From assembly GCA_024679065.1 (NCBI GenBank), contig JAGIQG010000009.1, positions 81,654,001 through 81,718,000 of the forward strand: a stretch of 64,000 nt of DNA, written 5' to 3'. This document shows positions 9,627-39,271 of this stretch, piece after piece. The first letter of the stretch is position 1, and every line of letters begins with the position of its first letter. The DNA comes from Sphyrna mokarran (Eukaryota). The translations under genes were made by a program, and so were the position numbers. Below the pieces are notes generated by a model. That model ran no database searches, was not told the DNA's origin, and saw only the letters and a list, made by a program, of their open reading frames with translations.

Positions 9627-9924
9627 GTATCAATGGAGAGATCATCATGACCCAGACTCCCGCGGTGCTGTCAGTGAGCCTGGGCCAGACCGCCACCATC
9701 ACCTGTACGGCCAGTCAAGGCATTAGCGATGATTGTGCCTGGTACCAACAGTGAGAAGGACAGAAACCGGCTCTGCTGATCTATGAGGCAACATGTCGGT
9801 TCACAGGAGTATCCGACCGATTCAGTGGCAGTCAATCTGGGACAAGATTCACCCTGACAATCAGCAATGTTCAGAATGAGGATGTCGCTGATTATTACTG
9901 TCAGCAATATCAGAGCTCCCCCTA
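9627..9924 (+). pseudogene. IGKV: Ig kappa-like (shark type III/NS4-like) V segment 1 with in-frame stop
   Basis: [54 protein letters not shown] at 9752-9754 where the paralogue has CGA. Followed by a 12-RSS. Confidence 0.9.
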
Positions 9925-9952
9925 CACAGTGATACAGAGCCTTACAAAAACC
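9925..9952 (+). promoter_or_regulatory. 12-bp-spacer recombination signal sequence of V1
   Basis: CACAGTG + ATACAGAGCCTT (12 nt) + ACAAAAACC; consensus heptamer and nonamer. Confidence 0.97.
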
Positions 9953-9955
9953 CCA

Positions 9956-11228
9956 ACACACACAGTCCCACCTCCTGTACTGACACATCCCACAGTTTTA
10001 TACAATATATAATAATGGACACACAGTCCCACCTCCTATACTGACACATCCCACAGTTTTATATAATATATAATAATGGACACACAGTCCCACCTCCTGT
10101 ACTGATACATCCCACAGTTTTATATAATATACAATAATGGACACACAGTCCCACCTCCTGTACTGACACATCCCACAGTTTTATATAATATATAATAATG
10201 GACACACAGTCCCACCTCCTGTACTGACACATCCCACAGTTTTATATAATATATAATAATGGACACACAGTCCCACCTCCTGTACTGATACATCCCACAG
10301 TTTTATATAATATATAATAATGGACACACAGTCCCACCTCCTGTACTGACACATCCCACAGTTTTATATAATATATAATAATGGACACACAGTCCCACCT
10401 CCTGTACTGACACATCCCACAGTTTTATATAATATATAATAATGGACACACAGTCCCACCTCCTGTACTGACACATCCCACAGTTTTATATAATATATAA
10501 TAATGGACACACAGTCCCACCTCCTGTACTGACACATCCCACAGTTTTATATATAATAATGGACACACAGTCCCACCTCCTGTACTGACACATCCCACAG
10601 TTTTATATAATATATAATAATGGACACACAGTCCCACCTCCTGTACTGACACATCCCACAGTTTTATATAATATATAATAATGGACACACAGTCCCACCT
10701 CCTGTACTGACACATCCCACAGTTTTATATAATATATAATAATGGACACACAGTCCCACCTCCTGTACTGACACATCCCACAGTTTTATATAATATATAA
10801 TAATGGACACACAGTCCCACCTCCTGTACTGACACATCCCACAGTTTTATATAATATATAATAATGGACACACAGTCCCACCTCCTGTACTGACACATCC
10901 CACAGTTTTATATAATATATAATAATGGACACACAGTCCCACCTCCTGTACTGACACATCCCACAGTTTTATATAATATATAATAATGGACACACAGTCC
11001 CACCTCCTGTACTGACACATCCCACAGTTTTATATAATATATAATAATGGACACACAGTCCCACCTCCCGTACTGACACATCCCACAGTTTTATATAATA
11101 TATAATAATGGACACACAGTCCCACCTCCTGTGCTGACACATCCCACAGTTTTATATAATATATAATAATGGACACACAGTCCCACCTCCTGTACTGACA
11201 CATCCTACAGTTTTATATAATATTTAAT
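9956..11228 (+). repeat. 61-bp minisatellite, about 21 copies, between V1 and J1
   Basis: Unit GGACACACAGTCCCACCTCCTGTACTGACACATCCCACAGTTTTATATAATATATAATAAT; copies nearly identical. Confidence 0.97.
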
Positions 11229-11499
11229 AAACACAAGAAAGGAAACTGAACAAATCATTTGCACTGTCCACTACACACTCCAGTCCCTGTGGTGTCCACT
11301 GCTCGCTGAAGGCCTCGAGTTTCTCTCTTACTCTCCATGTTCACATGTGAAGAACAGCTGAAAGATTTATCATCTCAAATTAAAATTCTCAACTCTCCCA
11401 GTAAAACACAGAGACATTCAGGGAAACCGGGAGAGAGAAACAGAGAGAGTGAAAGAGTGAGAGAGAAAGAGATGAGTGAGTGAGTGAGTCAGAGACAGA

Positions 11500-11538
11500 G
11501 GTTTTTGTACAGCTCCTGCACTGGAAGCTGTCAGTGTG
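11500..11538 (-). promoter_or_regulatory. 23-bp-spacer RSS of J1
   Basis: GGTTTTTGT (11500-11508) + 23 nt + CAGTGTG (11532-11538; one mismatch to CACTGTG). Confidence 0.95.
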
Positions 11539-11573
11539 CCTTACGTTTGCTAAAGGAACCAAACTCAGACTGA
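11539..11573 (+). CDS. IGKJ: Ig light-chain J segment 1 (LTFAKGTKLRL)
   Basis: Follows the 23-RSS; F-x-x-G-T-K-L motif; phase-1 GTAAGT donor at 11574. Confidence 0.93.
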
Positions 11574-13787
11574 GTAAGTAAAGCCCAATCCTCCGTTATT
11601 AACCCTTTCAATGCTGAAACTTCCTCAAACACAAATACTGAATAGTTGAAGGTGTTAGTGAGGAAGTTGCAGTCAATGAAATGTTGATTGAAGAACATTG
11701 TGTAGAACAGGGAGTCCAGCTGTATTTCTTTCCTTCCATTCCCTCTTTAAGCAGCAAGATTTCAGTCAGCAGCTTTTACCCACCGTGTGGAGGAGATCTG
11801 GACGTTTGCAGAATGTGTTCACATTCCCGCAGCATGGAGTGAAATCACTCTCTGGACTCCTGTTGGTCTCAGTGTGACACACACAGGCAGAGTTTGATGT
11901 GAAGTTGAACTCTCTGTCTCACTCTCTGATATAACTGACCACAGCAGCAGCACAGTGAGACACCGAGGTGCCACCTGCCCCAGCTTTCACTCTGCTCTCT
12001 CCACTCCCTGCTTATCTCTTGCTGAAGTTCTGATGACAAACAGCCACAGCAGGGCTCACAATCCAGTGGCTTCAGTGTTCCAGGCTTTTGTTACTTTCTC
12101 TTTGGGATGAGTTCAGTCCAATATTTATCCTTGATCTAACATCACTGAAAATGCTGATTGTTCTCATTGCTATGTGTGGGATCTTGCTGTGTACATATTG
12201 TGACCAGTCCTCAGACAGGATTCCTCATTTGTTAACTCACTGAACCGGATCCCAATTTTGTTTCCCTCTGGGTGAGGAATAATCAGCTGGAATGCCACAC
12301 TCGATTGGTCACAAAAAGATTCATTTAAAATGGATCCGTTCACGGTGCAAATCTTACACAGTCCATGTAGTTTTTTATTAGCCATTGAATCTCTACAGTG
12401 CAGGAGGAGGATATTCAGTCCATCGACAGAATTATGAGAGACAGAGATAGGGTAGATATGATGAAACTTTTCCCATTGATCACAGAGGTAGCAGATTTTG
12501 AGAGACGTGAGGGAAATCTTTTCACCTCAGCTTCTTACCCAGGCTCCCTGTAATCCTGCACATTTACCATTGCTAACCCACAAAAGAACACACGAGGGGC
12601 AATTTAGCATTGCCAATCCATCGAACCCGCAGACTTTTGGAATGTGATATTCCATCTACTCTCGGGTCTGGTCAGTCAAATATAACCCACATCGGAATTT
12701 CCAGAAGCTGGTCACTTTACATTCTTGGCCATCTTGGAATGTGGAAGGAAACTGGAGCACCCGAAAAAATGTTTCAACTCACGTTCTGTCACATCAGTAC
12801 CAGTACACACAGCTCAGGTATACAGTTGAATTTTTAATCCATTTCCCTGTTACTTCATTAAAGATAACAAACTAATATGTCCTTCACCCCAGAGTCAGTT
12901 TACTTTGAACTCAGACCATTTCCACATTCTGAGACATAACTCAACAGGAGATGGGTTTTGGATGTCTGCTGAGATGTGACAATCAGACTCCATTGTCTCC
13001 ATAACCACAAGAGAATAAAATTTAGTCTTTGTCATTTTTTCTATCTGCATTTCTATTTTCTGTTTGAAGAAGTCCCTGATACCTTTCAGGTGAGATATTC
13101 CATCTACTCTCGGGTCTGGTCTGTCGAATATAATCCACATAGAATTTTCCAGATTGGCCACTTTACATTCTCGGCCATCTTGGCTGAGTCAGAGTGACAT
13201 AGACATTTACAGAACAGAAAGCACAGAAAGAGGCCCTTCGGCCCATCCTCTCTTTGCAGGCCATCAAGCTCCTAACTATTCTCATCCCATTTTCCAGCAC
13301 TTGATCAGTAGCCTTGTATGCTTTGGAATTTCAAATGATTACCTAAATGCTTCTTAAATGTTGTGAGGGGTTCCTGCCTCAACCACCCTTCCAGGTAGTG
13401 AGTTCCAGATTCCCCACACCCTCTGAGTGAAAAGGTTTTTCCTTCAATCCCTCAAAATCTGCTTCTGAAATTAAATCTATGCTCCCTGGTTTTTGAATCT
13501 ACTGCTAAAAAGGGAAAAGTTCCTTCGTATCTGCTCTATGTCTTCATAATTCTGACCTGCTGCAGTTATACAGGGCTTTGGTGAGGCAGCACTGGGAATA
13601 TTGTGCACAGTTTTGTCTCCCTATCTCAGGAAGGATATTTTTGGTCTCGAGGGAGTGCAGAGAAGGTATCCCAGACAGATTCCTGTTATAATGGGACTGA
13701 TGTATGAGGAGAGATTGAGTTGGTTAAGACTTATATTCACTGGAGTTCAGAGGAATGAGGAAGGAACTCATGGAGACTTATAAAATT

Positions 13788-15191
13788 AGTGGGTTAGTTA
13801 GTGGGTAGTCGTGGAAGGCTCTTTTTCCAACTGGAGGTGTGTCACTAGTGGTGTGCCACAGGGCTCAGTACTAGGACCTCTTCTATTTGTGATTTATATA
13901 AATGAGTTGGAAGAGGGGGTAGGTGGTGTGATCAGCAAATTTGCTGATGACACTAAGATGCTTGAATTGGCTGGAACTGAGGAGCAGTGCCAGGCAATAC
14001 AACAGGACATAGATAGGCTGGTAGATTGGGCAGATAGATGGCAAATGGAATTTAATCCGGATAAATGCTAGGTGATGCATTTTGGCCGGAATAATGTAGC
14101 GGGGAGTTATAGGATAAAAGGTAAAACTATCGGGAGTATAGAGACACAGAGAAACCTGGGGGTGCAGGTTCACAAGTCTCTGAAGGTGTCAGTACAGGTG
14201 GAGAATGTGATAAAGAAAGCGTATAGTATGTTAGCCTTCATAGGAAGAGGTTTAGAATACAAGAGTAGGAGTTTGATGTTGCAAGTGTGTAGAACGTTGG
14301 TTAGGCCTCACCTGGAGTACTGCGTCCAGTCCTGGTCGCCATACTACCGGAAGGATGTGGAGGCCCTGGAGAGAGTGCAGAGGAGATTTACCAGGATGCT
14401 GCCTGGTATGGAAGGGCTGTCTTACGAGGAAAGATTGAACGCACTGGGGTTGTTTTCCCTTGAAAGACGTCGGCTGAGAGGGGATCTAATAGAGGTATAT
14501 AAGATTATAAGGGGTATAGATAGAGTAAATGGTGGTAAGCTTTTTCCACCATTAGAATCGGATAGAACGAGGGGTCACGGCCTTAGGGTGAGGGGGGCTA
14601 TGTATAAGACTAATATTAGAGGGCATTTTTTCACACAAAGGGTAGTGGGGGTGTGGAATGCACTGCCGAGTAAGGTGGTGGGAGCAGGCACGCTAGGGTT
14701 GTTTAAGGGTCTCTTGGACTAGCCACATGAACAGTCTGCAGATAGAGGGATATAGCAGGACTGTCTAAATATCTTATTTGTTTCCACAAGATATTCGGTC
14801 CACCTTGTTGACCAACAAGGTGCATGCATTCGGCAGGTCGTGCAAGAGCTGCTCTTGGCTATTGCTTCAGGAGTGGCCTAGTGCTTCACGTCGTTAGTGT
14901 ATGCTTAAACTGGACCATCTGATGCGCACCATGACAGCTCAGAGACTATCGCTGTTGCTGTGGACACACATGGATTTGGGCCTGTGTCTGCAGGAGTTTG
15001 TGCATTCTCCCCGTGGTTGCGTGGGTTTTCTCCGGGTGCTCCGGTTTCCTCCCACATCCCCAAAAATGTGCTCTTAGGCTGATTGGGTAACAAATTGGTC
15101 CCTATATGTCATTAAGACGTTAGGACGGCGGCGCGGGCTCGTTGGGCCGAAGGGCTTGTTTCCCGTGCTGTTTTGTTCTTTGTTCTTTGTT
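13788..15191 (+). mobile_element. CR1-clade LINE 3' part with long 3' UTR containing SINE-like core
   Basis: RT ORFs 13811-14722, then UTR, V-SINE-like core ~14984-15075, (TTCTTTG)n tail; absent at the paralogous site ~41978. Confidence 0.88.
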
Positions 15192-15769
15192 GGGGAATAG
15201 TGAGGTAAATACATGGGGCTTATGGGGTAAGAGTTGATGCAGACTCGATGGGCCGAATGGTCTCCGCCTGCACTTTAGAGATTCTGTTGTCCATGTCTGT
15301 GCCGGCCATTAAGCATCTATCTATTCTAATCTCATTTTCCAGCACTTGGTCCGTAGCCTTGTATACTTCGGAATTTCAAATGCTCATCTAAATGCTTCTT
15401 AAATGTTGTGAAGGTTCCCACCTCCACCATCCTTTCAGGCAGTGAGTTCCAGATTCCCAGCACCCTCTGGGTGAAAACATTTCCCTCAATTCCCTCATAA
15501 TCTGCTGCCTCTGTGATTAAGGAGAAAAGTTTCCTCATATCTCCCCTATCCCTGTCCCTTGTAATTCTGTCTTTCTGCAGTTATCCAGGGCCTTGGTGAG
15601 ACCACACTGGGAGTAATGTGTACAGTTTTATCCCCTCATCTGAGGAAGATGTTTTTGCGACAGAATAAGTGCAGCAAATGCTTGTTGGAATGAGTTATGC
15701 GATAGTGGATTTGATGTAGGAGGAGAGATTGCATTGGTTAAGATTATTTTTTTAAACTTTATTTATTAG

Positions 15770-16059
15770 CCACAAGTAGGCTTACATTCACACTGCAATG
15801 AAGTCACTGTGAAAATCCCCACGTGGCCACATTCCCGCGCCTCCTCAAGGATTCTGAGGGAGAATTTAACTTGGCCAATTCATCTAACCTGCACAACTTT
15901 TGGACTGTGGGAGGAAACTGGAGCACCTGGATGAAACCCACGCAGACATGGGGAGAATGTGTAAACTCCACACAGACAGTGAGCCAAGCTGGCAATTGAA
16001 CTTGGGTCCCTGGCACTGTGAGGCAGCAGTGCTAACCACCGTGTCACCGTGCTGCCCCC
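15770..16059 (-). mobile_element. tRNA-derived SINE (HE1/V-SINE-like)
   Basis: Head GGCAGCACGGTGACACGGTGGTTAGCACTGCTGCCTCACAG..GTTCAATTGCC (A/B boxes) and core GTGGAGTTTACACATTCTCCCC..CCTCCCACAGTCCAAA. Confidence 0.8.
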
Positions 16060-18803
16060 CTGCAGTTGAGAAGAATGAAGGGGTTCACATATAAAAAAAC
16101 TATTTAATTCCAATAGGACCAGTCAGGATAAACACAGGAAGCATGTTCCCAGTGCTGGGAACGTCCAGTTTGAGGCATCATAATCTAAGAATATGGGGTA
16201 AACCTTTTAGGACTGAGGTGAGGAGAAATTCCTTCACCCAGAGAGGGGTAAACCCATGGAATTCACTGTCACAGAAAGCAGGTGAGGACAAAATAACGTA
16301 CATTTCCAAGAAGGAGTTAGATATAGCTACTGGGATGAAAAGGATGAAATAATTTGATGGGGAGACAGGATCTGGCCACTGATTGGATGATCAGCCATGA
16401 CCATGATGAATAGTGGAACAGTCTCAAAGGGCCAAATGGCCTATTCCTGTTCCTATTTCCTGTGATTCTCTGCAGACCAGTATTTATCACCCATCCCTAA
16501 TTGCCCTGGTGAAGATGGTGCTGAGGTGATGGAATAAGTTCTACTCCAATGAGTATCGGCCCAACTTACTCAAACTTTCCTCGTAAGACAATCCCTTACT
16601 CGGTGGAATCAGCCCAGTGAACCATCTCTGAAATCTTTCCAATTCTACTATATCCTTCCTTAAGTAAGGAGACCCTAAGTGTCCACAATATTCTAAGTGT
16701 GATTTTCTCAAAATGCTGTAGCAAAACATCCTCCTTTTATACTCATCCTCATTGGAATGAAGAGCAACATTCCATTTGTCTTCCAAATATTTTTCTGTTC
16801 CTGGATGCAAAAACACCCAGATCACTCGATAGAATTTCTCCAGTTTACTAGTATTCTGCTCTATTCTCCTGCCAAAGTGGACAACCTCACATTTTCCCAC
16901 ATTATTCCCCATCTGTCGATGTTTCCCCACTCACTGAACCTATCTCTATTCCTTTTCAGACTCTGTATCCTCCTCACAACATGCATTTCTACTTTTCATT
17001 TTATCATCAGCAAGTTTAGTGACATTCCTCTCATTCCCTTCATCCAGCTCATTAATACAGATTGTAGAGTTAAACCCAAACAACAACCATCTTCCTTTGT
17101 GCCGGGTACAACTCCAACCAGTGGAGAGTTTTCCCCTGATTCCCATTGGCTCCAGTTTTGTGAGGGCTCCTTGATGCCACACTTGCTGAAATGCTGCCTT
17201 GATGTTAAGGACAGTCTCTCTCACCTCACCTCTGGAGTTCAGCTCTTTTGTCCATGTTTGAACCAAGGCTGTAATGAGATCACGAGCTGAGTGACCCTGG
17301 TGGAACACAAACTGAGTGTCAGTGAGCAGATTATTGCTGAGTAAGTGCTGCTTGGTATTGCTCTGGATATGTTCAGATCACATTGCTGATGATTGAGAGT
17401 AGACTGATGGGGTGGTTATTGTGTGGATTGGATTTGTCCTGTTTTTTGTGCACAGTTCATAACCAGGTAATTTATCACAATGTTGTGTTGATGCCAGTGT
17501 TGTAGATGTACTGGAACAGCTTGGTTAGGGACACGGGAAGTTCTGGAACACAGTCTTTAGGACCTCTGGAGGAGGTCGAGATGGATCATCCACTCGGAAC
17601 TTCTGGCTGAAGATTCCCGCAAATGCTTCAGCCTTATCTTTTCTCCTGATGTGCTGGGTTTTTCCATCACTGAGGATGGGAATATTTGTGGTGCCTCCTC
17701 CTCCAGTGAGTTGTTTAATTGTCCACCACCATTCACGGTTGGATGTGGCAGGACTGCAGAGCTTAGAACTGATCCATTGGTTGTGGGATGGTTTAACTCT
17801 GTCTATCACTTGCTGCTTCTGCTGTTTGGCACACAGTCTCTGTGTTGTAGCTTCACCAGGTTAACACCTCATTTTTCAGTCTGTCTGTTGTTGCTCCTGG
17901 CATGTCCTCCTGCACTCTTCATTGAACTGAAAGCAGCAGAGAATCCACAGAAACAGACTGATGTTTCTCTGATGTTTCTGTGTGTTTATTAGTTGTGACT
18001 GAGCAGATAGCAAGAGTTTCAGCAGCAACAAAGATGTTTCTCTAGTTCACCTCCCACTTTCCCCATCCACTTCCAAAATCTTCATGGGGAAAGGGCCAGC
18101 ACCTGTCATATCCCCCCCTCTAAACTACAGGCCTCCCATCTTTCAGATGAGACAATCTGATATCTGCCCTCTCAGGGGGTGTAAAAGATCCCATGGTACT
18201 ATTGGAAGAAGAGCAGGGGAGTTCACCCCGGTGAACAGGTCAATATTCATCCCTCAATCAATATCACTACAAATCTGCTTATCTGTACTTTCTCACTCTG
18301 TTCCCTGAGACCTTGCTGTGCATAATAAGCTGTAAAACATTGGGACATTCTGAGGTGGTGACAGGTGCTATAGAAATGTAATTCTGTCTGTGAGGTTGGA
18401 GATTCCTGATCCTGACTCTCTCCCATTGATAACATAAAAGCATCCTCCAGAGTTCATGGTGTCATTCGGAGCAGTGACCCTGTCTGACCCCTGGGCACTG
18501 AGTCTAATTCTAGCCTCACCATTGACCTCAGCCCAGTGCTGGACAGGAAGGTTTGAAATGAAATCTAGAAGTTTCTACACCAGCCAATGGGAATCCTGTC
18601 TGAAGTGTGTTGATCCAAGTCTGCTCCAATGTTCTGGGATAAAGTTCTCCTGATCTGTGTGTGATCTGAGGTTTGTTGATGCTCAACCTGTTTCCCCCAG
18701 ACAGACTGAGCAATAATTCCAGCTTCCTGACTGGTTAACAGTCTCTTCAAGCGACACTGTGTCTTTAAAGACTCTCAGTATTAACCATTTCAGTGCTGAA
18801 TTT

Positions 18804-21768
18804 AGAACATAGAACATAGAACATTACAGCGCAGAACAGGCCCTTCGGCCTTCGATGTTGCACCGGCCAATTAAGAAAAAGCAATGACCCTCTAACCTAA
18901 ACCATTCCCTTTTCATCCATAAACTTATCTACTAACCTCTTAAACGCCACCAAACTTGGCGCATCTACAACTGCAGCAGGCAGGGCATTCCATACCCTTA
19001 CCACCCTCTGGGTAAAGAACCTACCTCTGGCATCCGTCCTACAACTAACACATTAATTTAAAGCTATGTCCCCTCGTGCTAGCTTTCTCCATCCTAGGAA
19101 AAAGGCTATCACTGTCCACCTTATCTAAACCTCTAATCATCTTATATGTTTCAATAAGGTCTCCTCTTAGCCGCCTTCTTTCTAACGAAAACAACCTCAA
19201 ATCCCTCAGCCTCTCTTCATAAGACCTGCCTTCCATACCAGGCAACATCCTGGTAAACCTCCTCTGTACCCTCTCCAATGCCTCCACATCTTTCTTATAA
19301 TGTGGGGACCAGAACTGCACACAATACTCCAAGTGCGGCCGCATTAGAGTTTTGTACAGTTGCAACATGACGTTGCGGCTCCGAAATTCAATCCCCCGAC
19401 CAATAAAAGCTAAGACTCCGTATGCCTTCTTAACAACCTTATCGACTTGATTGCCAACTTTCAGGGATCTATGCACATATACACCAAGATCCCTCTGTTC
19501 ATCAACACTATTAAGAGTCCTACCATTAGCCCTATACTCTACACATTTGTTATTCCTGCCAAAGTGAATTACCTCACACTTTTCCACATTAAACTCCATT
19601 TGCCACCTCTCGGCCCAGCTCTGCAACTTGTTCAAGTCTCTCTGCAAACTATAACACCCCTCTTCACTATCTACCACTCCTCCGACTTTGGTGTCATCCG
19701 CAAATTTACTAATCCATCCTTCAATACCCTCATCCAGATCATTTATAAAAATTACAAACAGCAGGAGCCCCAAAACAGATCCCTGAGATACACCACTTGT
19801 AACCGAACTCCATGATGAATAATTTCCATCAACCACCACCCTCTGTCTTCGATCAGGTAGCCAATTCCTAATCCAATTAGCTAAATCATCCTCAATCCCA
19901 TACATCTGCATTTTCTGCAGAAGTCTTCCATGGGGAACCTTATCGAACACCTTACTAAAGTTCATATATACCACATCAACCGCCTTAACCCCATCCACCT
20001 CTTTGGTCACTTTTTCAAAAACCTCAATAAGGTTAATAAGGCACGACCTACCCTTCACAAAACCATGCTGACTATCCCCAATCAATTCGTTTCTCTCTAA
20101 ATAACTATAAATCCTATCCCTAATAATTCTTTCCAATACTTTGCCCACAGCAGAAGTAAGACTCACTGGCCTATAATTCCCTGGAAGGTCTCTCTTCCCC
20201 TTCTTGAACAATGGGACCACATTCGCTATCCTCCAGTTTTCCGGAACTATACCCGTAACCAACGACGACCTGAAGATCAGAGCCAGAGGCTCTGCAATCT
20301 CCTCTCTTGCCTCCCAGAGAATCCTAGGGTAAATCCAGTCCGGCCCAGGGGACTTATCCAACTTCAAACCCTCGAGAATATCTAGCACATCCTCCCTATC
20401 TACTTCAATACTTTCCAGTTTGCAACCATGTACCTCAGTGTTCTCCACAACTTCATTTACATCTCCCTGCGTGAATACCGAAGAGAAATATTTATTCAGT
20501 GCCTCTCCAATCTCTTCAGGCTCCACGCACAACTTCCCACTGCTGTCTATGACTGGCCCTAATCTTGCCCTAACCAATCTTCTATTCTTAACATATCTAA
20601 AGAAAGCTTTAGGATTCTCCTTAATCCTATCAGCCAAAGTCTTCTTGTGTCCTCTCTTAGCTCTCCTCAACTCACTCTTTAGCTCCCTCCTGGCTAATCT
20701 ATAGCTATCCATTGCACTAACTGAGCCTTCAAGCCTCATCCTGACATAAGCCTCTTTTTTCCTTTTAACCAGTGAATTAACTTTTTTCGTACTCCATGGT
20801 TCCCTTACTCGACCATTTCCTCCTTGCCTGACAGGGACATACTTATCAAGGACTCGCAGTAGCTGCTCCTTGAATAAGCTCCACATTTCAGATGTTCCCA
20901 GTCTTGTAGTTTCCTAGTCCAATCTATGCACCCTAATTCCCTCCTAATGGCCTCATAATTACCATTACCAGCTATAACTACTGCCCCCAGGTTCATGCCT
21001 ATCCCCATCCATCACTAAGGTGAACGTAACCAAATTGTGGTCACTATCACCAAAATGTTCACCAACTTCCAAGTCTAACACCTGGTCTGGCTCATTGCCC
21101 AGCACCAAATCCAATGTAGCCTCACCTCTAGTTGGCCTATCTACATACTGAGTCAAAAAACCTTCCTGCACACTTTGTATAAAAACTGACCCCTCTAACG
21201 AGCTAGAGCTATAGCTATTCCAATCAATATTAGTAAAGTTAAAGTCCCCCATAACAATTACCCTATTACTTTCAATCCTGTCCAGGATCGACTTTGCAAT
21301 CCTTTCCTCTACCTCTCTAGAACTTTTAGGCGGTCTATAAAAGACTCCCAACAGGGTGACCTCTCCTCTCCTGTTTCTAATCTCAGCCCATACTATCTCA
21401 ACAGACAAGTCCTCATCAAACATCCTTTCTGTCACTGTGATACAGTCTTTGACTAATAATGCCACTCTTCCCCGCCTTCTACCTCCTTCTCTACTCTGAC
21501 TGAAGCATTTGAACCCTGGAACCTGCAACAACCATTCCTGTCCCTGCTCTATCCATGTCTCTGAAATGGCCACAACATCGAAGTTCCAGCTACTGGTCCA
21601 AGCTGCAAGTTCGTCCACCTTATTGCGAATACTTCTTGCATTAAAGTATACGCATTTCAAACCATGCCCTAGTCCACCCGTACGCTGCTGTGCTTTACAG
21701 TTCTCGTCTATGACCCCCTTATTCTCGTCCCTCTTAACATCCAGGCTTCTTCGGATCCCACCCCCCCT
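18804..21768 (-). mobile_element. Young CR1-clade LINE, near-complete ORF2 (APE endonuclease + RT), disrupted frame
   Basis: ORFs 20965-21819 (YFNARSI..ISETW..GDFN..SDHN) and 19045-20886 (RT). CTGAATTT target-site duplication at 18796-18803 and 21769-21776. Absent in unit B (~47105). Confidence 0.95.
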
Positions 21769-22750: not shown

Positions 22751-23079
22751 CCCGTGAGAATTCACAACCCACGCTGACCCTGCTGCCCCCCTCCCCGGAG
22801 GAGGTCAAGACCAAGGGCACTGCCACCCTGGTGTGCCTTGCCGATCACTTCTATCCCGATGAGGTGGAGGTGAAGTGGAAGAAGGACGGTGCAGCCATTT
22901 CCAACGGGATTCAGACCAGCGACTACCTGCGAGCTTCGGACAACACCTACAGCGTCAGCAGCCTGCTGACCCTCTCTGGCTCCGACTGGGAGTCCAACGC
23001 TCGCTTCTCCTGTGCCCTCACCCACGTGAGCCTCTCCTCTCCCCTCAGCAAGAGTGTCAGGAGTTCAGAATGTGCCTAG
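22751..23079 (+). CDS. IGKC: Ig light-chain constant exon, cluster 1
   Basis: Pyrimidine-rich AG acceptor. RENSQPTLTLLPPSPEEVKTKGTATLVCLADHFYPDEV..WKKDG..YSVSSLLTL..FSCALTH..SECA*, a C1-set domain with penultimate Cys. Confidence 0.95.
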
Positions 23080-23553: not shown

Positions 23554-23559
23554 AATAAA
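23554..23559 (+). terminator. Polyadenylation signal, cluster 1
   Basis: AATAAA ~475 nt after the stop, conserved at 51726, followed by a GT-rich tract. Confidence 0.7.
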
Positions 23560-23686
23560 CATTAAGAATATTCAGTATATGTCTGGTGAGTGCTTTGGAA
23601 ATGTCCCACCTCCCCATCAGCTGATTGGCTGCATTTCACCAAGTGATTGTCCTGATTGGTTGCTTGGACTGTCAATCAATGACACA

Positions 23687-27752: not shown

Positions 27753-28389
27753 ATTTTAAGAGGAAACAAAACACACAAACTCTATAATACACGACAATGC
27801 ATTTAACTATATGCATGAACTCAGGGCTAGACACACACACTATTACATGAAGCTCCCCCTTTCTCCTCAATCACCTCTGTTTCCTGAACATTGAGGTTTC
27901 CCTTTGTTCCAAAACAATATCCAATACTCTGTAACTCTAAGCTAAATCCAGTGAATAATTATCCCACACAGGTTATATGGCAGCATTCAGGATCCCTGAC
28001 TCCTTTACGGTGACAAACTCTCGTCGTGTGGGTCGGACCCTCACTGGTTATGTATTCAGTCCAAGGTGGGACAGAATGTTAAACATCGACACTAGCCCAG
28101 ACCGAATGTCTCGGGTTGCAGTGGAGAGAACCCTGATCACAACCAGAAAGTTTCTGGAACAAAGCAATCGAACAATCCCAAGGGGAAGGGGGCAGGTGAA
28201 CCTGGACAGAGGAAAGAGCAGGAAAGTGGAGGATTCAGTGAGAAATGGAGGGGAGATGGTGAGATTGCAGAAGAAATGGAGGGAAGTAGGGAGGGTGACA
28301 GCAGCTGGTGAAACTGTTGGAGTTGAATAGTTAGTGTGTGTATTTGATGTTCTGAGAGACTGTTGCTATCCAAAGTGGTAGAGATGCTG

Positions 28390-31350
28390 ATTGTAATAAG
28401 TGGAGGAGACTGGATTTGGAAATAACTAACTAAAGGCTTTATTGATGAGAAAAACTATTTCCAATGAAGGGTTTAACAACACAAGCAGACATGTCTATTA
28501 CCAACAACATCCTGACTCTAACTGAAGCCTCCAGTCCCAGGAATGATCACCCTCACTCCCGATTGGCCCAGGTTCACATCCTCACAGGCCATTGGATCAG
28601 GTCTGGTCATGTGGCCTGTGAAGGATTGCCCGTTAAAGGGGCCAGGCTCACACACTCCTTCCCCTGGAACATCTTGGACTCCCTGTGATCAAACAAAAAG
28701 TACAACAGTTAACACACAGGCAGAGAAACAACAATATTACAGGAGGGACACCAGGGAAAGACAGTTCATAATGTCAGCTGGTCCAGAGATTTCTGGAACC
28801 TTGCAGAACGCTGCAACTCTATCAGGGGCACTTCAACAGCCATTGATACAGGATCCACTGATGGGATGGATGTGCGAACCATCTCTGGAGCTAGGCCCTG
28901 GGCAGCTCCTTTTCTCTGCCTCACCCACCCAAGCCAGACGCTGCCTTGGCCACACGATGGACATGGAATTGTCTTGTTCAGAGGCTGGTACACACAAACT
29001 GGTTACGGGGCCCAATTGCTCATCTCCTGGAGCTTGCTCTAGTCTCTTGCATAGGTAACCAATATGTTCCTTAACTCCACAGCCCTGTGTCTCCCCCAAA
29101 TATGAGACTGGTCCTATCTTCTCCACAACTGGGTCCACCATCCAAATTCCCACTCAACATGAGGTTGCCATCATTAAACAATCTGTGCCCTTTCTGAGAG
29201 TCACGATACCCTTTCTGAGAGGCTCGCTGAGTCTCCATCCTCCCCAACAAATTTGGGAACAATAAATCCAAACAGATACACAGGCACCGACCCAATAACA
29301 ACTCTGTGGATGTGACCTCGACATGACCCCAGTGATGGTGTGAGGTGTAGTGTTGTAGGACAGCAAATAACTGGCCAATCGCAAAGGCAGCGGTCCATGA
29401 ACCTGCTTCACATGGAGCCTTGAACATCAGCATGGCTCCATCAACCCATTCGAGGCAGAATGGTCGGGGGCTGGCCTGACATGACAAATGTCATTAGACT
29501 TGACCAAAGTCTGAGATTCATCAGCGTGAATGCTGCTCCGTTGTCTGATAGCAACACTTCAGGAAGACCACGGATCACAAAGATCTGCCTCAGTTTATTG
29601 ATGGTAAATGGAGGATGTGATGGGATCTCATGAGCTGATCGTCCAGTCACTTGGAAGAGGCATCGACTAACACGAGGAACATCTGTCCAAAACCTACATG
29701 AAGCCGTGACCAAGAGAGCATGTTCACTGATGGAGGTAACACTTGCTGAGTCGGACAACTCTCACACTGCCCAACCATTTGTTCAATGTCTCTGTTAATA
29801 CCATAACTTCTGACCAACACTTTCATTCTACTCTGGCCAGGGTGGGCATCATGTAACTCTTGGAGCAGTGGCCATGCCCAGAGGGTTGTATGCTGACACA
29901 GACCTCCCCCACAATAGCACCTCCTCTTCACAGGGTATCTGGTCCCTGCAATGTAAATACTACTTCATTAGCTGTGCCTTGTCAAAGTCCCACCCAGTCA
30001 GTACCATTTTCTTGCCCTTTGCTGACACCAGATCCCTATCTATCCACATCTGAATGTGGGCTGCTGAGACAGGCAGGGTGTCCAAATAATGCAGAGCCAA
30101 TACTATCTCCTGTGGAACAGGCAGTGACGGTATGGTCTGTTTAGTGCCAGCAGCAATGCCCATCTCTGCACCCTGGCAGAGGCAATAGGTGGCACTGGCT
30201 TAATGTCCTGGAAAAGCCCCAACAATGGCTTATGGTCTGACATGATGGTGAAATGCCGCCCATAGACATATTGGTGAAACTTTTCACTGTGTGGATAATT
30301 GCTGGGCTTTCTGTGTCAATTTGTGAGTACATTTTGTCAACATTTAACGAAGTCCTCGAAGAAAATGAATTTCGCCTCTTCATCCCATCTGCCATTCTAT
30401 GGGACAGAATTGGTCCAACAGAAACAGAGATGACAAGGGATCATGGATAGAAGTGGGAACATTGAAGTGGCAGCATGGACTTGTTGGGTCGAAGGGCTTG
30501 TTTCCCGTGCTGTTTTGTTCTTTGTTCTTTGTATTGACCTTAGTCACTCTGACACTAAGGAGAAATTTAGCATGGCCAATCAGTCTAACTGCACATCATT
30601 GGACTGTGGGAGGTTAATTCCAGGCAACCAGACATAACTACTGGCCATCACTTCTCCTCCTCTTCTCCACTTCTCCTCTGGCCAATTTGAGTCTCATGTA
30701 ACTTTTGGAGCAGTGGCCATTGCACAATGGGTAATACCATGAAACTGACACCCTACAATAGCGCTTCATCTTCACGGGGTATCTGGTCCCTGCAATGTAA
30801 ATACAGCTTCATTTGCTCTGCCTTGTCAAAGTACGTCCCGATCAGTATCATTTTCTTGCCCTTTGCTAACACCAGCTCCCTATCTGTCCACATCTGAATG
30901 TGGGCTGCTGAGACAGGCAGGGTGTCCAAATAATGCAGAGCCAATACTATCTCCTGTGGAACAGGCAGTGACGGTATGGTCTGTGCTAGCGGCAGGCGGC
31001 TCAATGCATCTGCATTTGAGATCTGTGTTCCCGACCTATGCTGGAAGGTTTAGCTGTTTAGTGCCAGCAGCAATGCCCATCTCTGCACCCTGGCAGAGGC
31101 AATAGGTGGCACTGGCTTAATGTCCTGGAAAAGCCCCAACAATGGCTTATGGTCTGACATGATGGTGAAATGCCGCCCATAGACATATTGGTGAAACTTT
31201 TCACTGTGTGGATAACTGCTGGGCTTTCTGTGTCAATTTGTGAGGAGATTTTCTCAACGCCTGACAAAGTCCTCAAAGCAAATGAATTTAGCCTCTCCAT
31301 TCCATCCTCCAGTCTATGGGATAGAATTGCTCCAAGTCCAATTTGTGTCA
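28390..31350 (-). mobile_element. Decayed Ty3/Gypsy-type LTR retroelement pol remnants (integrase, RNase H), partly duplicated internally
   Basis: LHDAHPGQSRMK..CESC (HHCC), SDNGAAFT, GLGAILSH..FALRTLS. Further remnants at ~33010-33800, 420-1200, 58230-59925 and 61430-62230. Ends approximate. Confidence 0.75.
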
Positions 31351-31895
31351 TAGAGTTACACAGTACGGAATCAGGCTCTTCGGCTCACCATGTCTATGCT
31401 GACCATCCAATACCAATCTATACTAATCCCATTTACCTGCTCCCGTATTCGAACTCTGGCTAATGAAGGCAAGCATTCCAATTGCCTTCTTCATCGCACT
31501 CTCTCTCTGTAATGCAACCTTCAGGGATCCATGGATTTGTAAACCAAAGTCCCTTTGTTCTTCAATTCTCCCTCAGGACCCACCATTCATTGTGTATATC
31601 CTACCTTTACTAAATCTCCCAAAATGCAGCACCTCACCCTTATCAGGATTAAATTCCATGTTTCATTGCTCTGTTCACCTATCCCATCCCCAAAATGCTC
31701 ACCCCACTGACACTTCAACAGCTTGCGCGGATTCATTCCTAACGATTAGGTCGAGCACGGTCCATCCTGAGTTGGATTATCTATCTCCTGACAGAAAAAG
31801 CTCTCTTGGAATCACTTCCAAAATTCCACCCTGTCTGAACATTTCACACTCAGGTGATTCTATTAATATTGGTGAAGTTGAAATCCACGACTATT

Positions 31896-32506
31896 ATAGA
31901 ACATAGAACATAGAACATTACAGCACAGAACAGGCCCTTCGGCCTTCGATGTTGTGCCGACCAAAATAAAAAGCAATGCCACTCCAAACTAAACCATTCC
32001 CTTCTCTTCCATATACTTATCAATTAACCTCTTAAACGCCACAAACTTGGCGCATCTACAACAGCTGCAGGCAGGGCATTCCACTCCCTAATCACTCTTT
32101 GAGTAAAGAACCTACCTCTGATATCCGTCCTATAACTCATACCCCTTAATTTAAAGCTGTGTCCCCTCGTGCTAGCTTTCTCAATCCTAGGAAAAAGGCT
32201 ATCACTGTCCACCCTATCTAAACCTCTAATCATCTTATATGTTTCGATTAGGTCCCCTCTTAGCCGCCTCCTTTCTAACGAAAACAACCTCAAATCCCTC
32301 AGCCTCTCCTCATAAGACCTGCCCTCCATACCAGGAAACATCCTGGTAAACCTCCTCTGTACCCTCTCCAATGCCTCCACATCTTTCTTATCATGTGGCG
32401 ACCAGAACTGCACACAATACTCCAAGTGCGGCCGCACTAGAGTTTTGTACAGTTGCAACATGATGCTGCGGCTCCTAAATTCAATCCCCCTACCAATAAA
32501 AGCTAA
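31896..32506 (-). mobile_element. Young CR1 3' fragment
   Basis: ORF 32024-32461; tail repeats; absent at ~60300. Confidence 0.9.
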
Positions 32507-35500
32507 AATCCTTATATCCTTATTTCTCTCACACCTCTCTCTGTGATTTGCCTACATATCTGCTCCTCTATCTCCCTCTGAGAGTTGGGAACGCTGTGTT
32601 TTAATCCCATACAATGATTGCTCTTTATATTTCTCAGCTCCACCCATATGGCCTCATTTGAAGCGCGTTCCAACACATTGTGCCTCATTATTGCAGTGAT
32701 GGTCTCTTTAATCTCTTACATCCTCTCTTACATCTCCCCCAATCACACCTTGAATTTCTATATCCTGGAATGTCGAGATTCCAGTCCAGTTCTTCTTTCA
32801 ATCATATCTCAGTGATTACAACAATCTCATATTTCCCTGTGCTGACCAAATCTCTTAAGTTCATCTGCCTGGCCAGACAGGCTCCTTGTTTTAAAATAGA
32901 TGCTGTTTAGCCTTCCAATCCTCCCATGTGCCTTATCAAGCCCAAGTCTTCTCTGCCTGCTGGACTCACCGACTTTTCCTTCTATATCTGACTGAACCTC
33001 ACTCCCAACTGTCCATCTACTGTGTGTTCATCCCCCACAAAGTATGGCGAGGCCACAAATGATTCCGAATGGTTTGCTTCGGGTCAAAGTGCACAAGCAA
33101 TGACGATGATGGGAAAGCTGTTTTGACTTTTACTAAAGTTTCTTTCTGTGTCTCTCCACAATTCCATCCCTGATGATTGTTTAAAAGCTCAGGGGGGTGG
33201 GGTGGGCAATGCAGAATTGATGCTGAGTTCAGCAGGACCCTTCTAATTGAGGAAGTCATTGGGAAGCTGGCGATCGGGCAGGAGGCCGACAATTGGGGGG
33301 ATAAGGGGGTGGCAGCCATTGGGAAGGCATTCAGTTGGGGAAGGGGAGTAGTGGTGGAGGTTGGTATCGGTGATTGGAGGGAGAGTTGTGGAAGGCATCA
33401 GGGGCTGGCAACTGGGCAAAGAGGGATGGGGTTGGGCATGGGGAGTCAGGGCCAGTGATTGGGGGGAGGTTGGGACGCCAGTCGATTCAGGAAAGTGAGA
33501 TTCGGTTGAGGGGGTCAGGGCCTGTGATCGGGGGAGTTGCGAATTAGATTGGAGAAGATATCGCAAGGCAGGGATGAGGGAGTGTTGATCCTGGCTTCAC
33601 GGGTGGGATTAACCCCATCCACAGGTGTAAATCCCTGGCAGATATTGTGAAATACCGAGTGCTGGCATTTCACTGAGTAAATATGCCCAGAAAATGGTGG
33701 GAAAATGTCCTGTTTTCCAGCCGCAATGGGCACTTAGTTTTTCAGAAAATTTGCCCCATCTTTTCAAGGAAGTAATGGACAAACTATACATTGGACATGA
33801 CCCACTAATAACACTCTGTTTACCTTCAACTCATTGTTTAACCTCCAGCCCATCTCCTGTTCCAATCCACATGTTTCAGTCAAGGAGTCAGATAGATCTA
33901 CAACAGAGGAGGAGCCATTCAGCCCCTCATTTCTGTACTAGCTATTTAACTAGAGTCAATCATAGCTAACAGCTCAATTTAATGTGTGTTGTGGGAAAGT
34001 GACTGGAATGTTTTATTAGAGACAGAACGAGTGAGAAAAATGAACTGATCAGAAAGAGTCAACACGGATTTCAAAACAGTCAGACATGTTCACCTAAACT
34101 GTTTACGTTTGTTAATGAGTCACCAGTGTGCTCGATAAAGGCATGTTCTGTATGTTATTTCTTTGTATTCCTAGAAGACATCTGGGAAAGTTCTATATAA
34201 GAGGCTGTGAATAAAAATGGAAGCATATGGAATTTGAGGAAAGCTTTTGCCATGAATAAGGAATTGGTTCGGAGACAGGAGACCGAGAGTAGGAATAATA
34301 TGTGTGGGTTTTCCAATCAGCAAGCTGTGAATAGTGATGTCCCCAGGGATCAGTGCTGAAGCCTTAGTTTTTCACTATATTTGTCAATGACTTGGACGAA
34401 GGAATAGAGAGTTAAGTATCCAAGATTACTGAGCACACTAAATGAGGCAGCTTGGAGGAGGTTACAGAGATAGGGAGAGTGCAGGACAGAGAGGGATTTG
34501 AGAGGCAGAATGAGAATGTTAAAATCAGGGCATTGCTGGACCGGGGATCAGTGTAGGTCAGTGAGAACAGGGGGTGACGGGTGAACGGGATTTGGTGTGA
34601 GTTCAGATCCGGGCAGCAGAGTTTTGGGTGAGCTGATGATTACAGAGGGTGGTAGGTGTGAGGTCGACCAGGACAGCATTGGAATAGTAACGTTCAGAGG
34701 GAACAAAGACACGGATGAGATTTTCAGCAGAAAGTGATGTGAGACAGGAGGACTCGGGAGATGTTATCGAGGAGGAAATACGTGTTCTTAGTGATGGAGT
34801 GGATGATGTGGTGGGAAAGTCATCTCAGGGTCAAATAGGACACCATGGGGGTGGACTGTGTGGTTCAGTGTCAGACACTCCAAAGGGAAAGGGATGGAGT
34901 TTGTATCGGGAGCTGAAGACCATGTCTTTGATCTTCCCAATGTGTTTCCCAGTGAGCCTGGCTCCTCAGTCCTGACTGCTCTGAGCTGTTGTTCTTTTCA
35001 CTGATTGGACAGTTATTGTTAGAGATTCAGACCACAGCACAAATCCCCAGTGTCAAAAATAACTGCAAAGACTGTCAGATCGGAAGATTGAAACGTAACC
35101 AACAGAGGAAGTGAAAGAAGGAGCTCAGAGCAGCTGGATGTTTGTTACTGAGACGGGAGAAAATGGTGAATCGTGTTCACTACCTCCAATCTCCCAGCAC
35201 TGAAGGCACAGTGGGATACAGTCAGGAGGGAGTTATCCTGGGACATCACTGCAGGAATTCCTCAGGGCCGTGTCTGAGACACAACCATCTTCAGCTGCTT
35301 CAGTAATGACCTTCAGAAGTGGGGATGTTCACTGATGATTGCACAATGCTCAGCACCATTCACAACTCCTCAGATATTGAAGCAGTAACATTCATGCCAC
35401 ATCAGTACCACGGAATCACCATCCCCAACAAGAGAGAATTTTAACATCTCCCCTTGACATTCAATGTCATTACCATCGCTGAATCCCCCACTGTAAAATC

Positions 35501-36952
35501 CTGTTGGTTATGATTGACCGGAAACTGAACTGGACCAGCCTATAAATACTGTGGCTACAAGACAAGGTCAGTGGATAGGAATCCTGCAGCGAGTAACTCA
35601 CATCCTGAATCTCCAAAGCCTCTCCACCATCTACAAGGCACAAGTCTGGAGTGTGATGGAATACTCTCCACTTGTCTGGATGAGAAGAGCTCCAGCAACA
35701 CTCAAAAAGCTCAATATCATCCAGAACAAAGCAGCCCCACTTGATTTGCACCCCATTCACAAACATTAAATCCCTCCACCACTGTCGAACAGTGGCAGCA
35801 GTGTGTGCCATCTATAAGATGCCCTGCATGAACTCACCAAGGTTCCTGAGGTAGCACCTTCGAAACCCATGACCACTATCATCTGGAAAGACAAGTGTAG
35901 CAGATCCCTGGGATCAACATCACCAGGAGATTCCCCTCCAAGCCACATGCCATTCTGAAATGGAAATACATCTCTGTTCATGCACTGTCGCTGGGTCAGA
36001 ATCCTGGAAATCCCTCCCTAACAGCACTGTGGGTGTGTGTACACCTCATGGACTGCAGCACTTCAAGAAGGCAGTTCATCACCACATTCTCAAGGGCAAT
36101 TAGGGATGGGCAATAAATGTTGGGACAGCCAGCGACACCCACATCCCATCAATGCATACATTTTTAATAATTCCTACTTTACACAATGTCCCATTCTGTG
36201 TGTTGAAGTCTGGATCCTGTCAGCAGGATATTTGACTGCAAGATCCTTCACCACTGTGTCTAATTCTGTCCGTAACCAAAACCCACACAGAACCTGAATT
36301 TATATAGCACCTTAGTGTATAACATAGCCCATTATGTTTCACAGAGCAGCATAAGAGGAATGGGGAGGGGCTGGGGGTAGTTTAGGAAGAGAGATCGAAG
36401 GCTTGGCTGAAAGGATGGAGTTTGATGGGGAGAATGATTTGGAGAGGGGGAGGGATTAAGGGTGGGAGAACAGATAGCAGGACCTGGGCGTCTGTCAATG
36501 ATGGGATGAAGGAAGCAGCGATGGGCCAAGGAGTAGAATCAACAGATGGAAGGTGAGGGAGAAATGTGAATCTGGAGCAGGAATACAGGGGTGGGGAGGA
36601 GTGAGGCCCTGGAGGGAATTGGAGGACAGTGAGGTCAGGGGTGACAGGTCAGTGAGGTCAGGGGTAAAAGGGAAATGAAGTCAGGGGTGATAGATCACAG
36701 AAGTGGGGTGCTGTTGGAACAACACTTGGTGTGAGACAGAGTCTGGACCTACTACATTTGGGACAAGCTGAGGTTTATGGAGTGTGGATAAGGAGAGCTG
36801 GGAAGGGATATTGGAATAACAGAGTGAGGAGGTGGGACATGCGGGGATAAGGGTTACTGTGCTTAAGGGTACGATGTAGTGTACAGACGCATAATGTTAT
36901 GGAAATAAGAGGCTGATGTCAGGGAAAGAATGTAGAGTTTGAAGATCAGCTA

Positions 36953-37275
36953 CTAGAGGCTCCAGTGGGAAGGAGGCCCATGTTTACTGGTCCCTACTGG
37001 AGGCTCCAGTGGGAAGGAGGGCCATGTTTACTGGTCCCTATTGGAGGCTCCAGTGGGAAGGAGGCCCATGTTTACTGGTCCCTATTGGAGGCTCCGATGG
37101 GAAGGAGGCTCATGTTTATTGGTCCCTATTGAAGGCTCCAGTGGGAAGGAGGCCCATGTTTACTGTTCCCTATTGGAGGTTCCAGTGGGAAGGAGGCCCA
37201 TGTTTACTGTTCCCTATTGGAGGCTCCAATGGCAAGGAGGCCCACATTTACTGGTCCCTATTGGAGGCTCCAGTG
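36953..37275 (+). repeat. 44-bp minisatellite, about 7 copies
   Basis: Unit GGAGGCTCCAGTGGGAAGGAGGCCCATGTTTACTGGTCCCTATT; only ~1.5 copies at 5810-5875. Confidence 0.92.
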
Positions 37276-38583
37276 GAGCATGGACATCATGGGCGATGTG
37301 AAGCAGTTTCTTTCTGTTTTACGTATTTCATTGTCCACCTTTGCAGTGGTCACAAAATAGATAACGGGCAACTTGTACCTGTGACAGGGAATTCGAAACG
37401 TTATCTAATAAACTGCCACATTAAATGTTACCACACAAGATGTGATGGTGTGTGGGTAAGAAGATGGTGTGTGGGTAAGAAGATGGTGTGTGGGTAACAT
37501 ATACGTATTGATAGAGGATTGGTTCCATAACAGAGACCAGATAGAGGTCATAGCATCTTGAAAGTGGAGTCATGGGCAGACAGAGTGCTGGAGAAGGCAT
37601 TCTGCATGCTTGGTTTCATTGATTAGAACATTGGATACTGGAATCAGGACGTCTTGTTGAAGTTATACAGGACATTAGTAAAAGCACATCTGGAATATTG
37701 TATATAATTCTGGTCACCCGATTATAGAAAGGATATTATTAAACTAGAAAGAGTGCAGAAAAGATTTACTATGAGGCTACCAGGACTTCATGGTTTGGGT
37801 TATAAGGAGAGGCTGGACTTCTTTCTCTGGAGGGTAGAAGGCTGAGAGGTGATCTTACCGATGTGTATAAAATAATGAGGGGTATAGATCAACCAGATAT
37901 TCAATATCTTTTCCCAAGGACAGGGGAGTCTAACACTAGATGGCATAGGTTTAAGGTGAGAGAGGAGAGATACAAAAGTGTCCAAACGTGTTGTAATATT
38001 TTCAAACAGAGGGTGGTGATTGTCTGGAACAAGTTGCCAGAGATAGTAGCAGAAGTGAGTACAATTTTATTTTTTAAAAAGCATTTAGGCAGTTACATGG
38101 ATAAGGTGCGTATAGAGGGGTATGGGCCAAATGCAGCAATTGGGGTTAGGGATTTTAAAAAAAGGCAGCATGGACAAGTTGGGCTGAAGGGCCTGTTTTC
38201 ATGCTGTAAACCTCTATGACTCTATGAGATAAAGTGAGGGAAAAACTGAGAGAAATAGAGGGTGGGAGAATGAGAAGAGAGAAAGAAAGAGTGAATGAGA
38301 GGGTAAACAAAGAGAGTGAGACAGGAATGAAAAGAAAGGGAGATAGCGACAGTGTGGTGGATAGAAAGAGAGACTAATGGAGAGTTACTCAGAGAGTGAA
38401 AGAGATAAGAATTGAGGGAGTGATATCAATAGAATGAGAGAGACAGAGATTGAGGGACAGATATTGAGAGAAAGAGAGAGAGAGAGAGAGACAGCGAGTG
38501 AGGGAGAGATATTGAGAGATTGAAAAACAGAGACAGAGGGACAGAGACTGAGGGACAGAGACTGAGGGACGGAGAGAGAAGAA

Positions 38584-38679
38584 GAGGAAGTGAAAGGTGC
38601 TGACGTGGTTTCTCTGGGTCAGACCATTTACAAACTGAGGAACAGGCAGTGAGACTCTCACAGGCTGCAGCTTTATAAA
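38584..38679 (+). promoter_or_regulatory. V2 promoter: ETS-IRF composite, CRE half-site, degenerate octamer, TATA
   Basis: GAGGAAGTGAAAG 38584-38596, TGACGT 38601-38606, ATTTACAA 38626-38633, TATAAA 38674-38679. Confidence 0.65.
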
Positions 38680-38738
38680 GCAGAGCCCAGTGAAGGGAGA
38701 GTTTATCAGTAACAGGCACAGGGACACGAGCACACACC

Positions 38739-38787
38739 ATGATTTCAGCCATCCAGCTGCTCTGGCCTCTGGCATTCTGCATCGCAG
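38739..38787 (+). CDS. Ig light-chain leader exon, cluster 2 (MISAIQLLWPLAFCIA-G)
   Basis: Paralogue of 9392-9440; GT donor at 38788. Confidence 0.92.
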
Positions 38788-38973
38788 GTACTAATCTCTC
38801 TCCTTCCACCTTGAATATTTTCCTGCTCTCCATTTCAATCCAATTCTCCTGACTTGTGATTGAAGGGAAAATGTTGAAAGGAGAGGAACAGTCAGTGTCT
38901 CCAACAATATCTCATTGTACAGCCTCTTTCTGTGACAGTTCTAACTTCACTCTATTTCTCAATTACCCCTCAG

Positions 38974-39271
38974 GTATCAATGGAGAGATCATCATGACCC
39001 AGACTCCCGCGGTGCTGTCAGTGAGCCTGGGCCAGACCGCCACCATCACCTGTACGGCCAGTCAGTCTGTTAGCAGCTATGTGAGTTGGTATCAACAGCG
39101 AGAAGGACAGAAACCGGCTCTGCTGATCTATGCTGCATCAACTCGATTCACAGGAGTATCCGACCGATTCACCGGCAGTGGATCTGGGACAAGTTTCACC
39201 CTGACAATCAGCAATGTTCAGAATGAGGATGTCGCTGATTATTACTGTCAGCAATATAACAGCTACGCCTA
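38974..39271 (+). CDS. IGKV: Ig kappa-like V segment 2, intact
   Basis: Open frame [95 protein letters not shown], with both canonical Cys and the Trp. Confidence 0.96.

Follow-up and report, generated by a model that had tools for sequence, protein, structure and literature searches.

Probable germline conversion between clusters and persistence of old loop lineages in a kappa light-chain gene array of Sphyrna mokarran

Shark immunoglobulin (Ig) kappa genes are known from NS4 of the nurse shark and type III of the horn shark, which are described, in the portions of the two reports drawn on here, as V-J-C minigene clusters with a 186-bp leader intron, a PstI site upstream of the leader, a split configuration and pseudogenes among close paralogues (PMC2193156, PMC4279169). 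In this work, we analyze two genes, V1 and V2, from a 64,000-nucleotide stretch of Sphyrna mokarran DNA (contig JAGIQG010000009.1, positions 81,654,001 to 81,718,000; hereafter, the window), which are unrearranged V genes of a kappa V-J-C cluster array of the NS4/type III kind and share all these features. Compared with what the same portions report for NS4, the Sphyrna array stands out by its 26 V loci, spaced about 30 kb apart on one contig and none of them (0/26) germline-joined, and by a V-J spacer in which a 61-bp minisatellite adds to the length, as against about 500 bp in nurse shark.

In the whole-V trees of Lee et al. (2000), built for two species, nurse shark NS4 was monophyletic relative to horn shark type III, and the part of that paper considered here reads this as a separate expansion of the kappa family in each species (PMC2193156). 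In contrast to that species monophyly, the loop lineages described below appear to cross species. The mouse T15 VH genes, as far as the cited account goes, are also close paralogues with differences focused on the complementarity-determining regions (CDRs), evidence of conversion and a pseudogene member (PMC2187977); in the Sphyrna locus, however, whole V-J-C clusters appear to exchange and loop lineages to persist across orders. Adjacent multi-base differences concentrated in the CDRs are likewise reminiscent of shark somatic hypermutation with tandem substitutions, as presented in the sections cited (PMC5931798, PMC4279169, PMC3371727), from which our locus departs in having neither a tandem excess in frameworks and intron nor a WRC/GYW bias, and in that the alleles are shared by germline paralogues.

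We consider it probable, at roughly 0.82, that V1 and V2 owe their pattern of differences to germline conversion between clusters, by which the scaffold (promoter, intron, frameworks, J and C) would be repeatedly overwritten, while old, shared CDR lineages would persist, probably kept by selection, and be reshuffled. The exchange is presumably meiotic or germline conversion, to which unequal crossing-over would add. The runs of adjacent differences would then be the summed divergence of two old lineages within a few codons and not single tandem mutations. The mechanism is ordinary and the locus is of a known kind; the case is unusually clean.

The window holds two Ig light-chain clusters, each made up of a leader, a 186-bp intron, a V segment with a 12-bp-spacer recombination signal sequence (RSS), a J segment with a 23-bp-spacer RSS and a C exon. 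Such a 12/23 arrangement of the RSSs is a feature of kappa genes. The V2 exon matches the Pfam family V-set and a C exon of cluster 2 matches C1-set; the nearest proteins are shark kappa chains, the C exon being 90% identical to Scyliorhinus P0113 and 83% to nurse shark P0140. A C1-set pattern search gave no match, and the C exons were located through open reading frames (ORFs) instead. Genome-wide, 26 V loci (U01 to U26, V1 being U20 and V2 being U21), 27 J segments and 28 near-intact C exons lie within 0.77 Mb, the V loci by themselves occupying 0.76 Mb. The plan of one V, one J and one C without D has two exceptions, namely a duplicated C in cluster 2 and one J of the array without V.

Compared ungapped and segment by segment, V1 and V2 differ at 1 of 49 positions in the leader, 4 of 186 in the leader intron, 0 of 69 in framework region (FR) 1, 15 of 33 in CDR1, 2 of 45 in FR2, 6 of 21 in CDR2, 5 of 96 in FR3 and 4 of 21 in CDR3. 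An earlier note, made from the letters of the window alone, had reported that the two genes differ almost only in their CDRs, by runs of adjacent substitutions, and its counts were reproduced: the four intron differences and the identical FR1, the 15 CDR1 differences within 22 nt (9718-9739), the six CDR2 differences within 15 nt, and the FR3 doublets AGT/ACC (9825-26) and CAA/GGA. The V-RSS and the J coding sequence are also identical, as it stated, with a single base differing in the J-RSS spacer. The concentration in the CDRs is pronounced (25/75 against 7/210 in the rest, p=8e-11). The flanks are indeed more diverged than the intron, differing at 8.6% of 19,190 aligned bases with a median of 14 differences per 186 bp, although in 8 of 92 flank windows differences are as few as in the leader intron. 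Absent from the earlier note was an in-frame TGA in the FR2 of V1. As to the adjacent runs themselves, the 14 adjacent pairs in the CDRs exceed the 8.4 expected over whole CDRs (p=0.003) and exceed less clearly the 11.0 expected within their variable parts (p=0.06). Adjacency between V1 and V2 is thus mostly an effect of density.

Nearly all V-exon differences between the two genes (30/32) are also found as alleles among the other 24 loci; private changes amount to two single bases in V1 and none in V2. For 12 of the 16 adjacent difference pairs an intermediate occurs in another paralogue, and 7 of the 9 codons with multi-base differences are bridged by observed single steps, such as AGC-AAC-AAT-GAT and AGT-GGT-GCT-GCC, the AGT/ACC doublet representing two separate changes from the majority AGC. 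The stepwise resolution that the earlier note had proposed as a refutation of its tandem events is therefore mostly what was found, and the adjacent runs are mostly not single events.

Evidence of exchange comes from the mosaic structure of the units, which were compared in block alignments, only the well-covered J-C and 3' blocks being taken from a whole-unit projection. U12 and U18, which are almost the same as U11 and U16, were left out of the population statistics; a single inserted codon in each of U04, U15 and U26 and three flank blocks with poor coverage were dropped as well. V1 shares its CDR1 with U24, its CDR3 with U15 and its FR1 with U07, U13, U17 and U21, and its FR3 is nearest to that of U22; likewise, the FR1 of U04 is identical to that of U23. 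Pairwise-distance matrices of neighbouring segments show little correlation for the most part, and the flanks of loci with the GI or TAS module resemble one another no more than average. In the J-C intron, incompatibility between sites rises with distance from 0.16 to 0.39 (permutation p=0.002). A GENECONV-like test gave a globally significant tract in 26 of 276 pairs, 16 when using noncoding sites only. The tracts include V1-U24 (intron to CDR2) and V2-U16 and V2-U17 (V exon), as well as a U17-U19 tract that is likely an assembly duplicate. Identity tracts and unrelated segment genealogies extend along the whole 30-kb unit, and synonymous divergence (pS) in the C exon, 0.035, is below the nucleotide diversity (pi) of the flanks, 0.045-0.078. 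The refuting outcome named in the earlier note came out only in part: differences resolve stepwise and hotspot bias is absent, but conversion tracts are present. Together with the uncorrelated segment genealogies and the cross-order CDR lineages on species-specific frameworks, these tracts support its alternative of framework-homogenising conversion.

The loops of both genes recur in other sharks (P0130 and P0142 were left out of the protein comparison set). The V1 family (GIxxxxAW, EA and often QQYQS) is found in Scyliorhinus P0113, whose loops read SQGIDNNIAW, EASTRFT and QQYQSYP, and in Chiloscyllium P0123, that is, in two orders. The SQSVSSYV family of V2 occurs in Scyliorhinus, Cetorhinus and Chiloscyllium, and the family of U04, which has a longer FR3 loop, in both Scyliorhinus and Chiloscyllium. 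The recurring V1- and V2-type loops sit on each species' own framework: the nearest framework is from the same genome in 24 of 24 loci, and Thr7 is present in all 26 loci, with Ser in nearly all other sharks. Between U19 and P0113, 3/24 residues differ in the loops and 6/61 in the framework, as against 11/24 and 3/61 between U19 and V2, and P0113 differs from P0118 of the same species at 8/24 and 1/61. The loop tree, built with FastTree, grouped U19 with P0113 and P0123 (SH 0.91), joined by U14, U20 and U24 (0.79), and U04 with P0005 and five Chiloscyllium proteins (0.97). From these protein sequences, the loop families probably predate the split between Carcharhiniformes and Orectolobiformes. 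Our literature searches gave no description of cross-order CDR lineages in shark kappa, although an earlier one in the nurse shark papers is possible.

The earlier note had also raised a hypermutation-like process on germline CDRs, considered here as an AID-type activity writing tandem substitutions into the CDRs of germline V genes. Intermediates are weak evidence alone in near-saturated codons, and doublets were therefore tested in unselected DNA too, as alleles in perfectly linked doublets. Their share is 23/99 in the CDRs against 89/1481 (6.0%) in the distal flanks (p=9e-8), which speaks for such a process, as do two unbridged V1/V2 codons, one 3-base change within the intron (U13, U14), a slightly raised variability at WRC positions over the initial 500 bp of the J-C intron (odds ratio [OR] 1.85, p=0.09) and the V1 stop, a C-to-T change in an AGC context. 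That stop is, however, also a CpG change, and in both flanks and C exon no other class varies as much as CpG. Moreover, doublets account for 0/48 alleles in the frameworks and 7/130 (5.4%) in promoter, intron and first 500 bp of the J-C intron, as opposed to a 38% share of tandem bases in the frameworks of hypermutated TCR-alpha in nurse shark, according to the section cited (PMC5931798); the two figures are different measures, but the gap is large nonetheless. WRC sites were not enriched over other C among variable sites of the island (OR 1.40, p=0.29), flanks (1.25) or FR (0.63), and synonymous sites showed no hotspot bias (WRY 10/33, other 15/49). The DNA that would be targeted is the least diverse of the unit, and the alleles are common to paralogues, only 2 of 32 being private, both single-base. 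Germline hypermutation is not supported and largely refuted, and we regard it as very improbable. Transfer of mutated, rearranged V transcripts from soma to germline, as argued in the part of PMC12941027 considered here, is likewise rejected, as extremely improbable. The low-diversity islands (promoter to V; J plus about 500 bp of intron) do roughly resemble a rearranged transcript, with a more diverse V-J spacer in between, but the island spans sequence upstream of a TATA-like motif and both RSSs, which rearranged RNA would lack. Another island lies about 4 kb upstream of V, no hypermutation spectrum is seen, and sharks of different orders have loop families in common. Such a transfer is contradicted by RSSs that are intact and by islands that are not transcribed. 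Somatic contamination of the assembly was also rejected, the V genes being unrearranged, the alleles shared and the V1 CDR1 present in sequencing run X1, which is maybe not independent.

Plain birth-and-death would combine recent duplications of whole clusters with framework and intron under purifying selection, CDRs under positive selection, and loops that became similar between species by convergence. FR ratios of nonsynonymous to synonymous divergence (pN/pS) of 0.22-0.34, an intron conserved across organisms, recent duplicate pairs such as U11/U12, the shortness of the loops, with similar motifs in mammalian kappa, and the monophyly of NS4 versus horn shark type III in the whole-V tree cited above (PMC2193156) are all in keeping with it. 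It predicts one genealogy per unit, though, and segments are uncorrelated and tracts local; convergence would need to have produced the full trio of CDR1, CDR2 and CDR3 in each of three species and, independently, the U04-family combination of CDR1, an FR3 insertion of one codon and CDR3. We therefore find it unlikely, although less so than hypermutation. Short-range templated micro-conversion or slippage, producing multi-base CDR blocks in single germline events that conversion then spreads, is a possibility we hold tentatively, and it is a supplement to conversion on persistent lineages, not an alternative. A CDR2 block changed from CGATTCA to ACTGCAT, with seven adjacent changes and no intermediate in eight carrier loci, fits it; codons 54-56 of U01 (GCT GCA TCA) are an exact copy of V2-type codons 50-52, 12 bases upstream, and suggest that one templated event, out of register, made the block and that conversion spread it afterwards; and GTG versus TGT at codon 33 is readable as a one-base slip. 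Against this, the template was noticed post hoc, and the CDR2 block is not among the V1/V2 differences.

Some results weigh against conversion acting on persistent loop lineages. The permutation test that was significant in the J-C intron gave p=0.94 in the promoter-intron segment and p=0.46 within the V gene, neither of them significant. Codons 28 (TCT/GGC) and 33 (GTG/TGT) remain unbridged, and the 14 unresolved CDR doublets, against 3.4 expected, are a real excess, which would fit recurrent replacement in the same codons, the intermediates having been lost, together with a small number of block events. The cross-species evidence is protein only (33 sequences, most of them predicted, in which the loops are short and tree support is moderate), and V1 itself differs from P0113 at 7/24 loop residues. 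The leader intron is slow between organisms, with at least 5 differences per 186 bp in sequencing run X7 as against at least 6 in about 80 bp at the start of the V exon. Both this intron and the J-proximal intron are conserved in other organisms' contigs, so that the low diversity of the two is due in part to constraint and in part to conversion, and the contrast of the leader intron with the flanks, although real, is confounded. Strong diversifying selection, the other half of the conversion alternative in the earlier note, is plausible but not formally shown: CDR pN is 0.28, far above flank diversity, yet pooled CDR pN/pS is 0.99 (CDR1 0.65, CDR2 1.45, CDR3 1.55) and the bootstrap interval of pN-pS spans zero. 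Selection probably maintains the loop families. Synonymous divergence is 0.19 in CDR1 and 0.15 in FR2, compared with the low value of the C exon, and such a rise near the loops would be expected if divergent loops resist conversion.

The major histocompatibility complex (MHC) combines trans-species polymorphism with conversion, and divergent sites are known to resist concerted evolution in duplicated genes. The kappa array is MHC-like in its old binding-site lineages on homogenised backgrounds and in its raised synonymous divergence near divergent sites; unlike in the MHC, what persists here is a set of paralogous V segments of the germline instead of allelic forms of a single locus. We lean slightly toward a stronger version of our explanation, in which a small number of co-inherited sets of CDR1, CDR2, HV4 and CDR3 would predate the split of the shark orders, conversion would swap the framework within tens of bases, the published species-specific expansions of the family would be an artefact of frameworks having been homogenised, and new modules would arise by short out-of-register germline templating.

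The array has several structural peculiarities. Two regions containing U16 and U18 (G000:C1548:81531910-81566000 and 81588848-81623000) match over about 34 kb without a mismatch, each copy beginning after a 100-N gap, which makes a false duplication likely; distinct V loci may thus number 25. Orientation flips at G000:C1548:81.35-81.37 Mb and 81.64-81.66 Mb, U20-U26 facing away from U01-U19, and U11 matches U12 at 97.5% in inverted orientation. At G000:C1548:81417452 (- strand), in the J-C unit without V, the minisatellite switches orientation upstream of J, which suggests a rearrangement breakpoint within it. A 148-bp copy of the leader intron (L015, G000:C1548:81087237-81087383) lies about 1 kb upstream of U01. 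The copy number of the 61-bp minisatellite, which directly follows the V-RSS, ranges from 0 to about 28 across clusters; the repeat contains a CACAGT resembling the heptamer and may influence V-J use or act as a seed for exchanges.

The features of the two clusters are given in Table 1. The V1 stop was not seen in contigs of four sequencing runs, which drop rare variants. With its RSS, J and C intact, V1 could still rearrange or serve as conversion donor. GI-family members U14, U20 and U24 carry an unpaired Cys in CDR1 (9731-9739), and V1 a second one in CDR2 (9794-9796). The usual J motif is FGXG; here (11539-11573 and paralogues) FAKG occurs in 14 of 26 loci, FSKG in 3 and FGKG in 9. A 240-bp noncoding element about 4 kb upstream of V (34960-35200, with copies near 2870 and 63590) is 98-100% identical over 24 copies, against differences of 6-12% in the DNA around it; it had no Rfam match and is a candidate enhancer. 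Between the two intact C exons of cluster 2 (49166-51252) lies a frameshifted, 86%-identical copy with many small gaps (about 50046-50388), which looks like an unpolished assembly segment. Further 3' of C, at 51872-53779, a 635-aa ORF with a reverse transcriptase domain (RVT_1) marks a young LINE-like insertion.

Table 1. Features of the two kappa clusters, in positions of the window
Feature	Position	Strand	Remarks
V1 promoter/5' region, start of low-diversity island	9250..9391	+	pi 0.0125, 24 paralogues; motifs located
V1 leader exon	9392..9440	+	
V1 leader intron, 186 bp, length as in nurse shark NS4	9441..9626	+	pi 0.022
V1 (U20) V exon, unrearranged, with stop codon	9627..9924	+	
V1 CDR1, same as U24	9707..9739	+	GI family: U14, U19, U20, U24
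In-frame TGA, V1 FR2	9752..9754	+	CGA in 24/25 other loci, CGG in one; V1-private
V1 CDR2, EATCRFT	9785..9805	+	
CAA vs GGA doublet, FR3 (HV4) loop	9833..9834	+	Common to U22; GAA intermediate in U04
V1 12-bp-spacer RSS, consensus heptamer and nonamer	9925..9952	+	
61-bp minisatellite, 21 copies, V-J spacer of cluster 1	9958..11230	+	
J1 with 23-bp-spacer RSS	11500..11573	+	
C exon, cluster 1, open	22751..23079	+	
V2 leader exon	38739..38787	+	
V2 leader intron	38788..38973	+	Same sequence as U17 from V2 promoter and leader to intron
V2 (U21) V exon, open, unrearranged; CDR2 AASTRFT	38974..39271	+	Pfam V-set
V2 12-bp-spacer RSS	39272..39299	+	
61-bp minisatellite, about 8 copies, cluster 2	39305..39823	+	
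J2 with 23-bp-spacer RSS	40116..40189	+	
J-C intron, first ~500 bp, second low-diversity island	40190..40690	+	pi 0.0215; one contig per run in 4/4 other-organism runs
C exon, cluster 2, copy a	49166..49494	+	Pfam C1-set
C exon, cluster 2, copy b	50924..51252	+	

The locus shows how antibody genes of the cluster type, which are unable to mix V and J between clusters, keep germline diversity. The loop sets that shark orders have in common point to specificities that are fixed and innate-like, and the trees and dates obtained from whole V genes of shark Ig families may be a record of conversion and not of past duplications.

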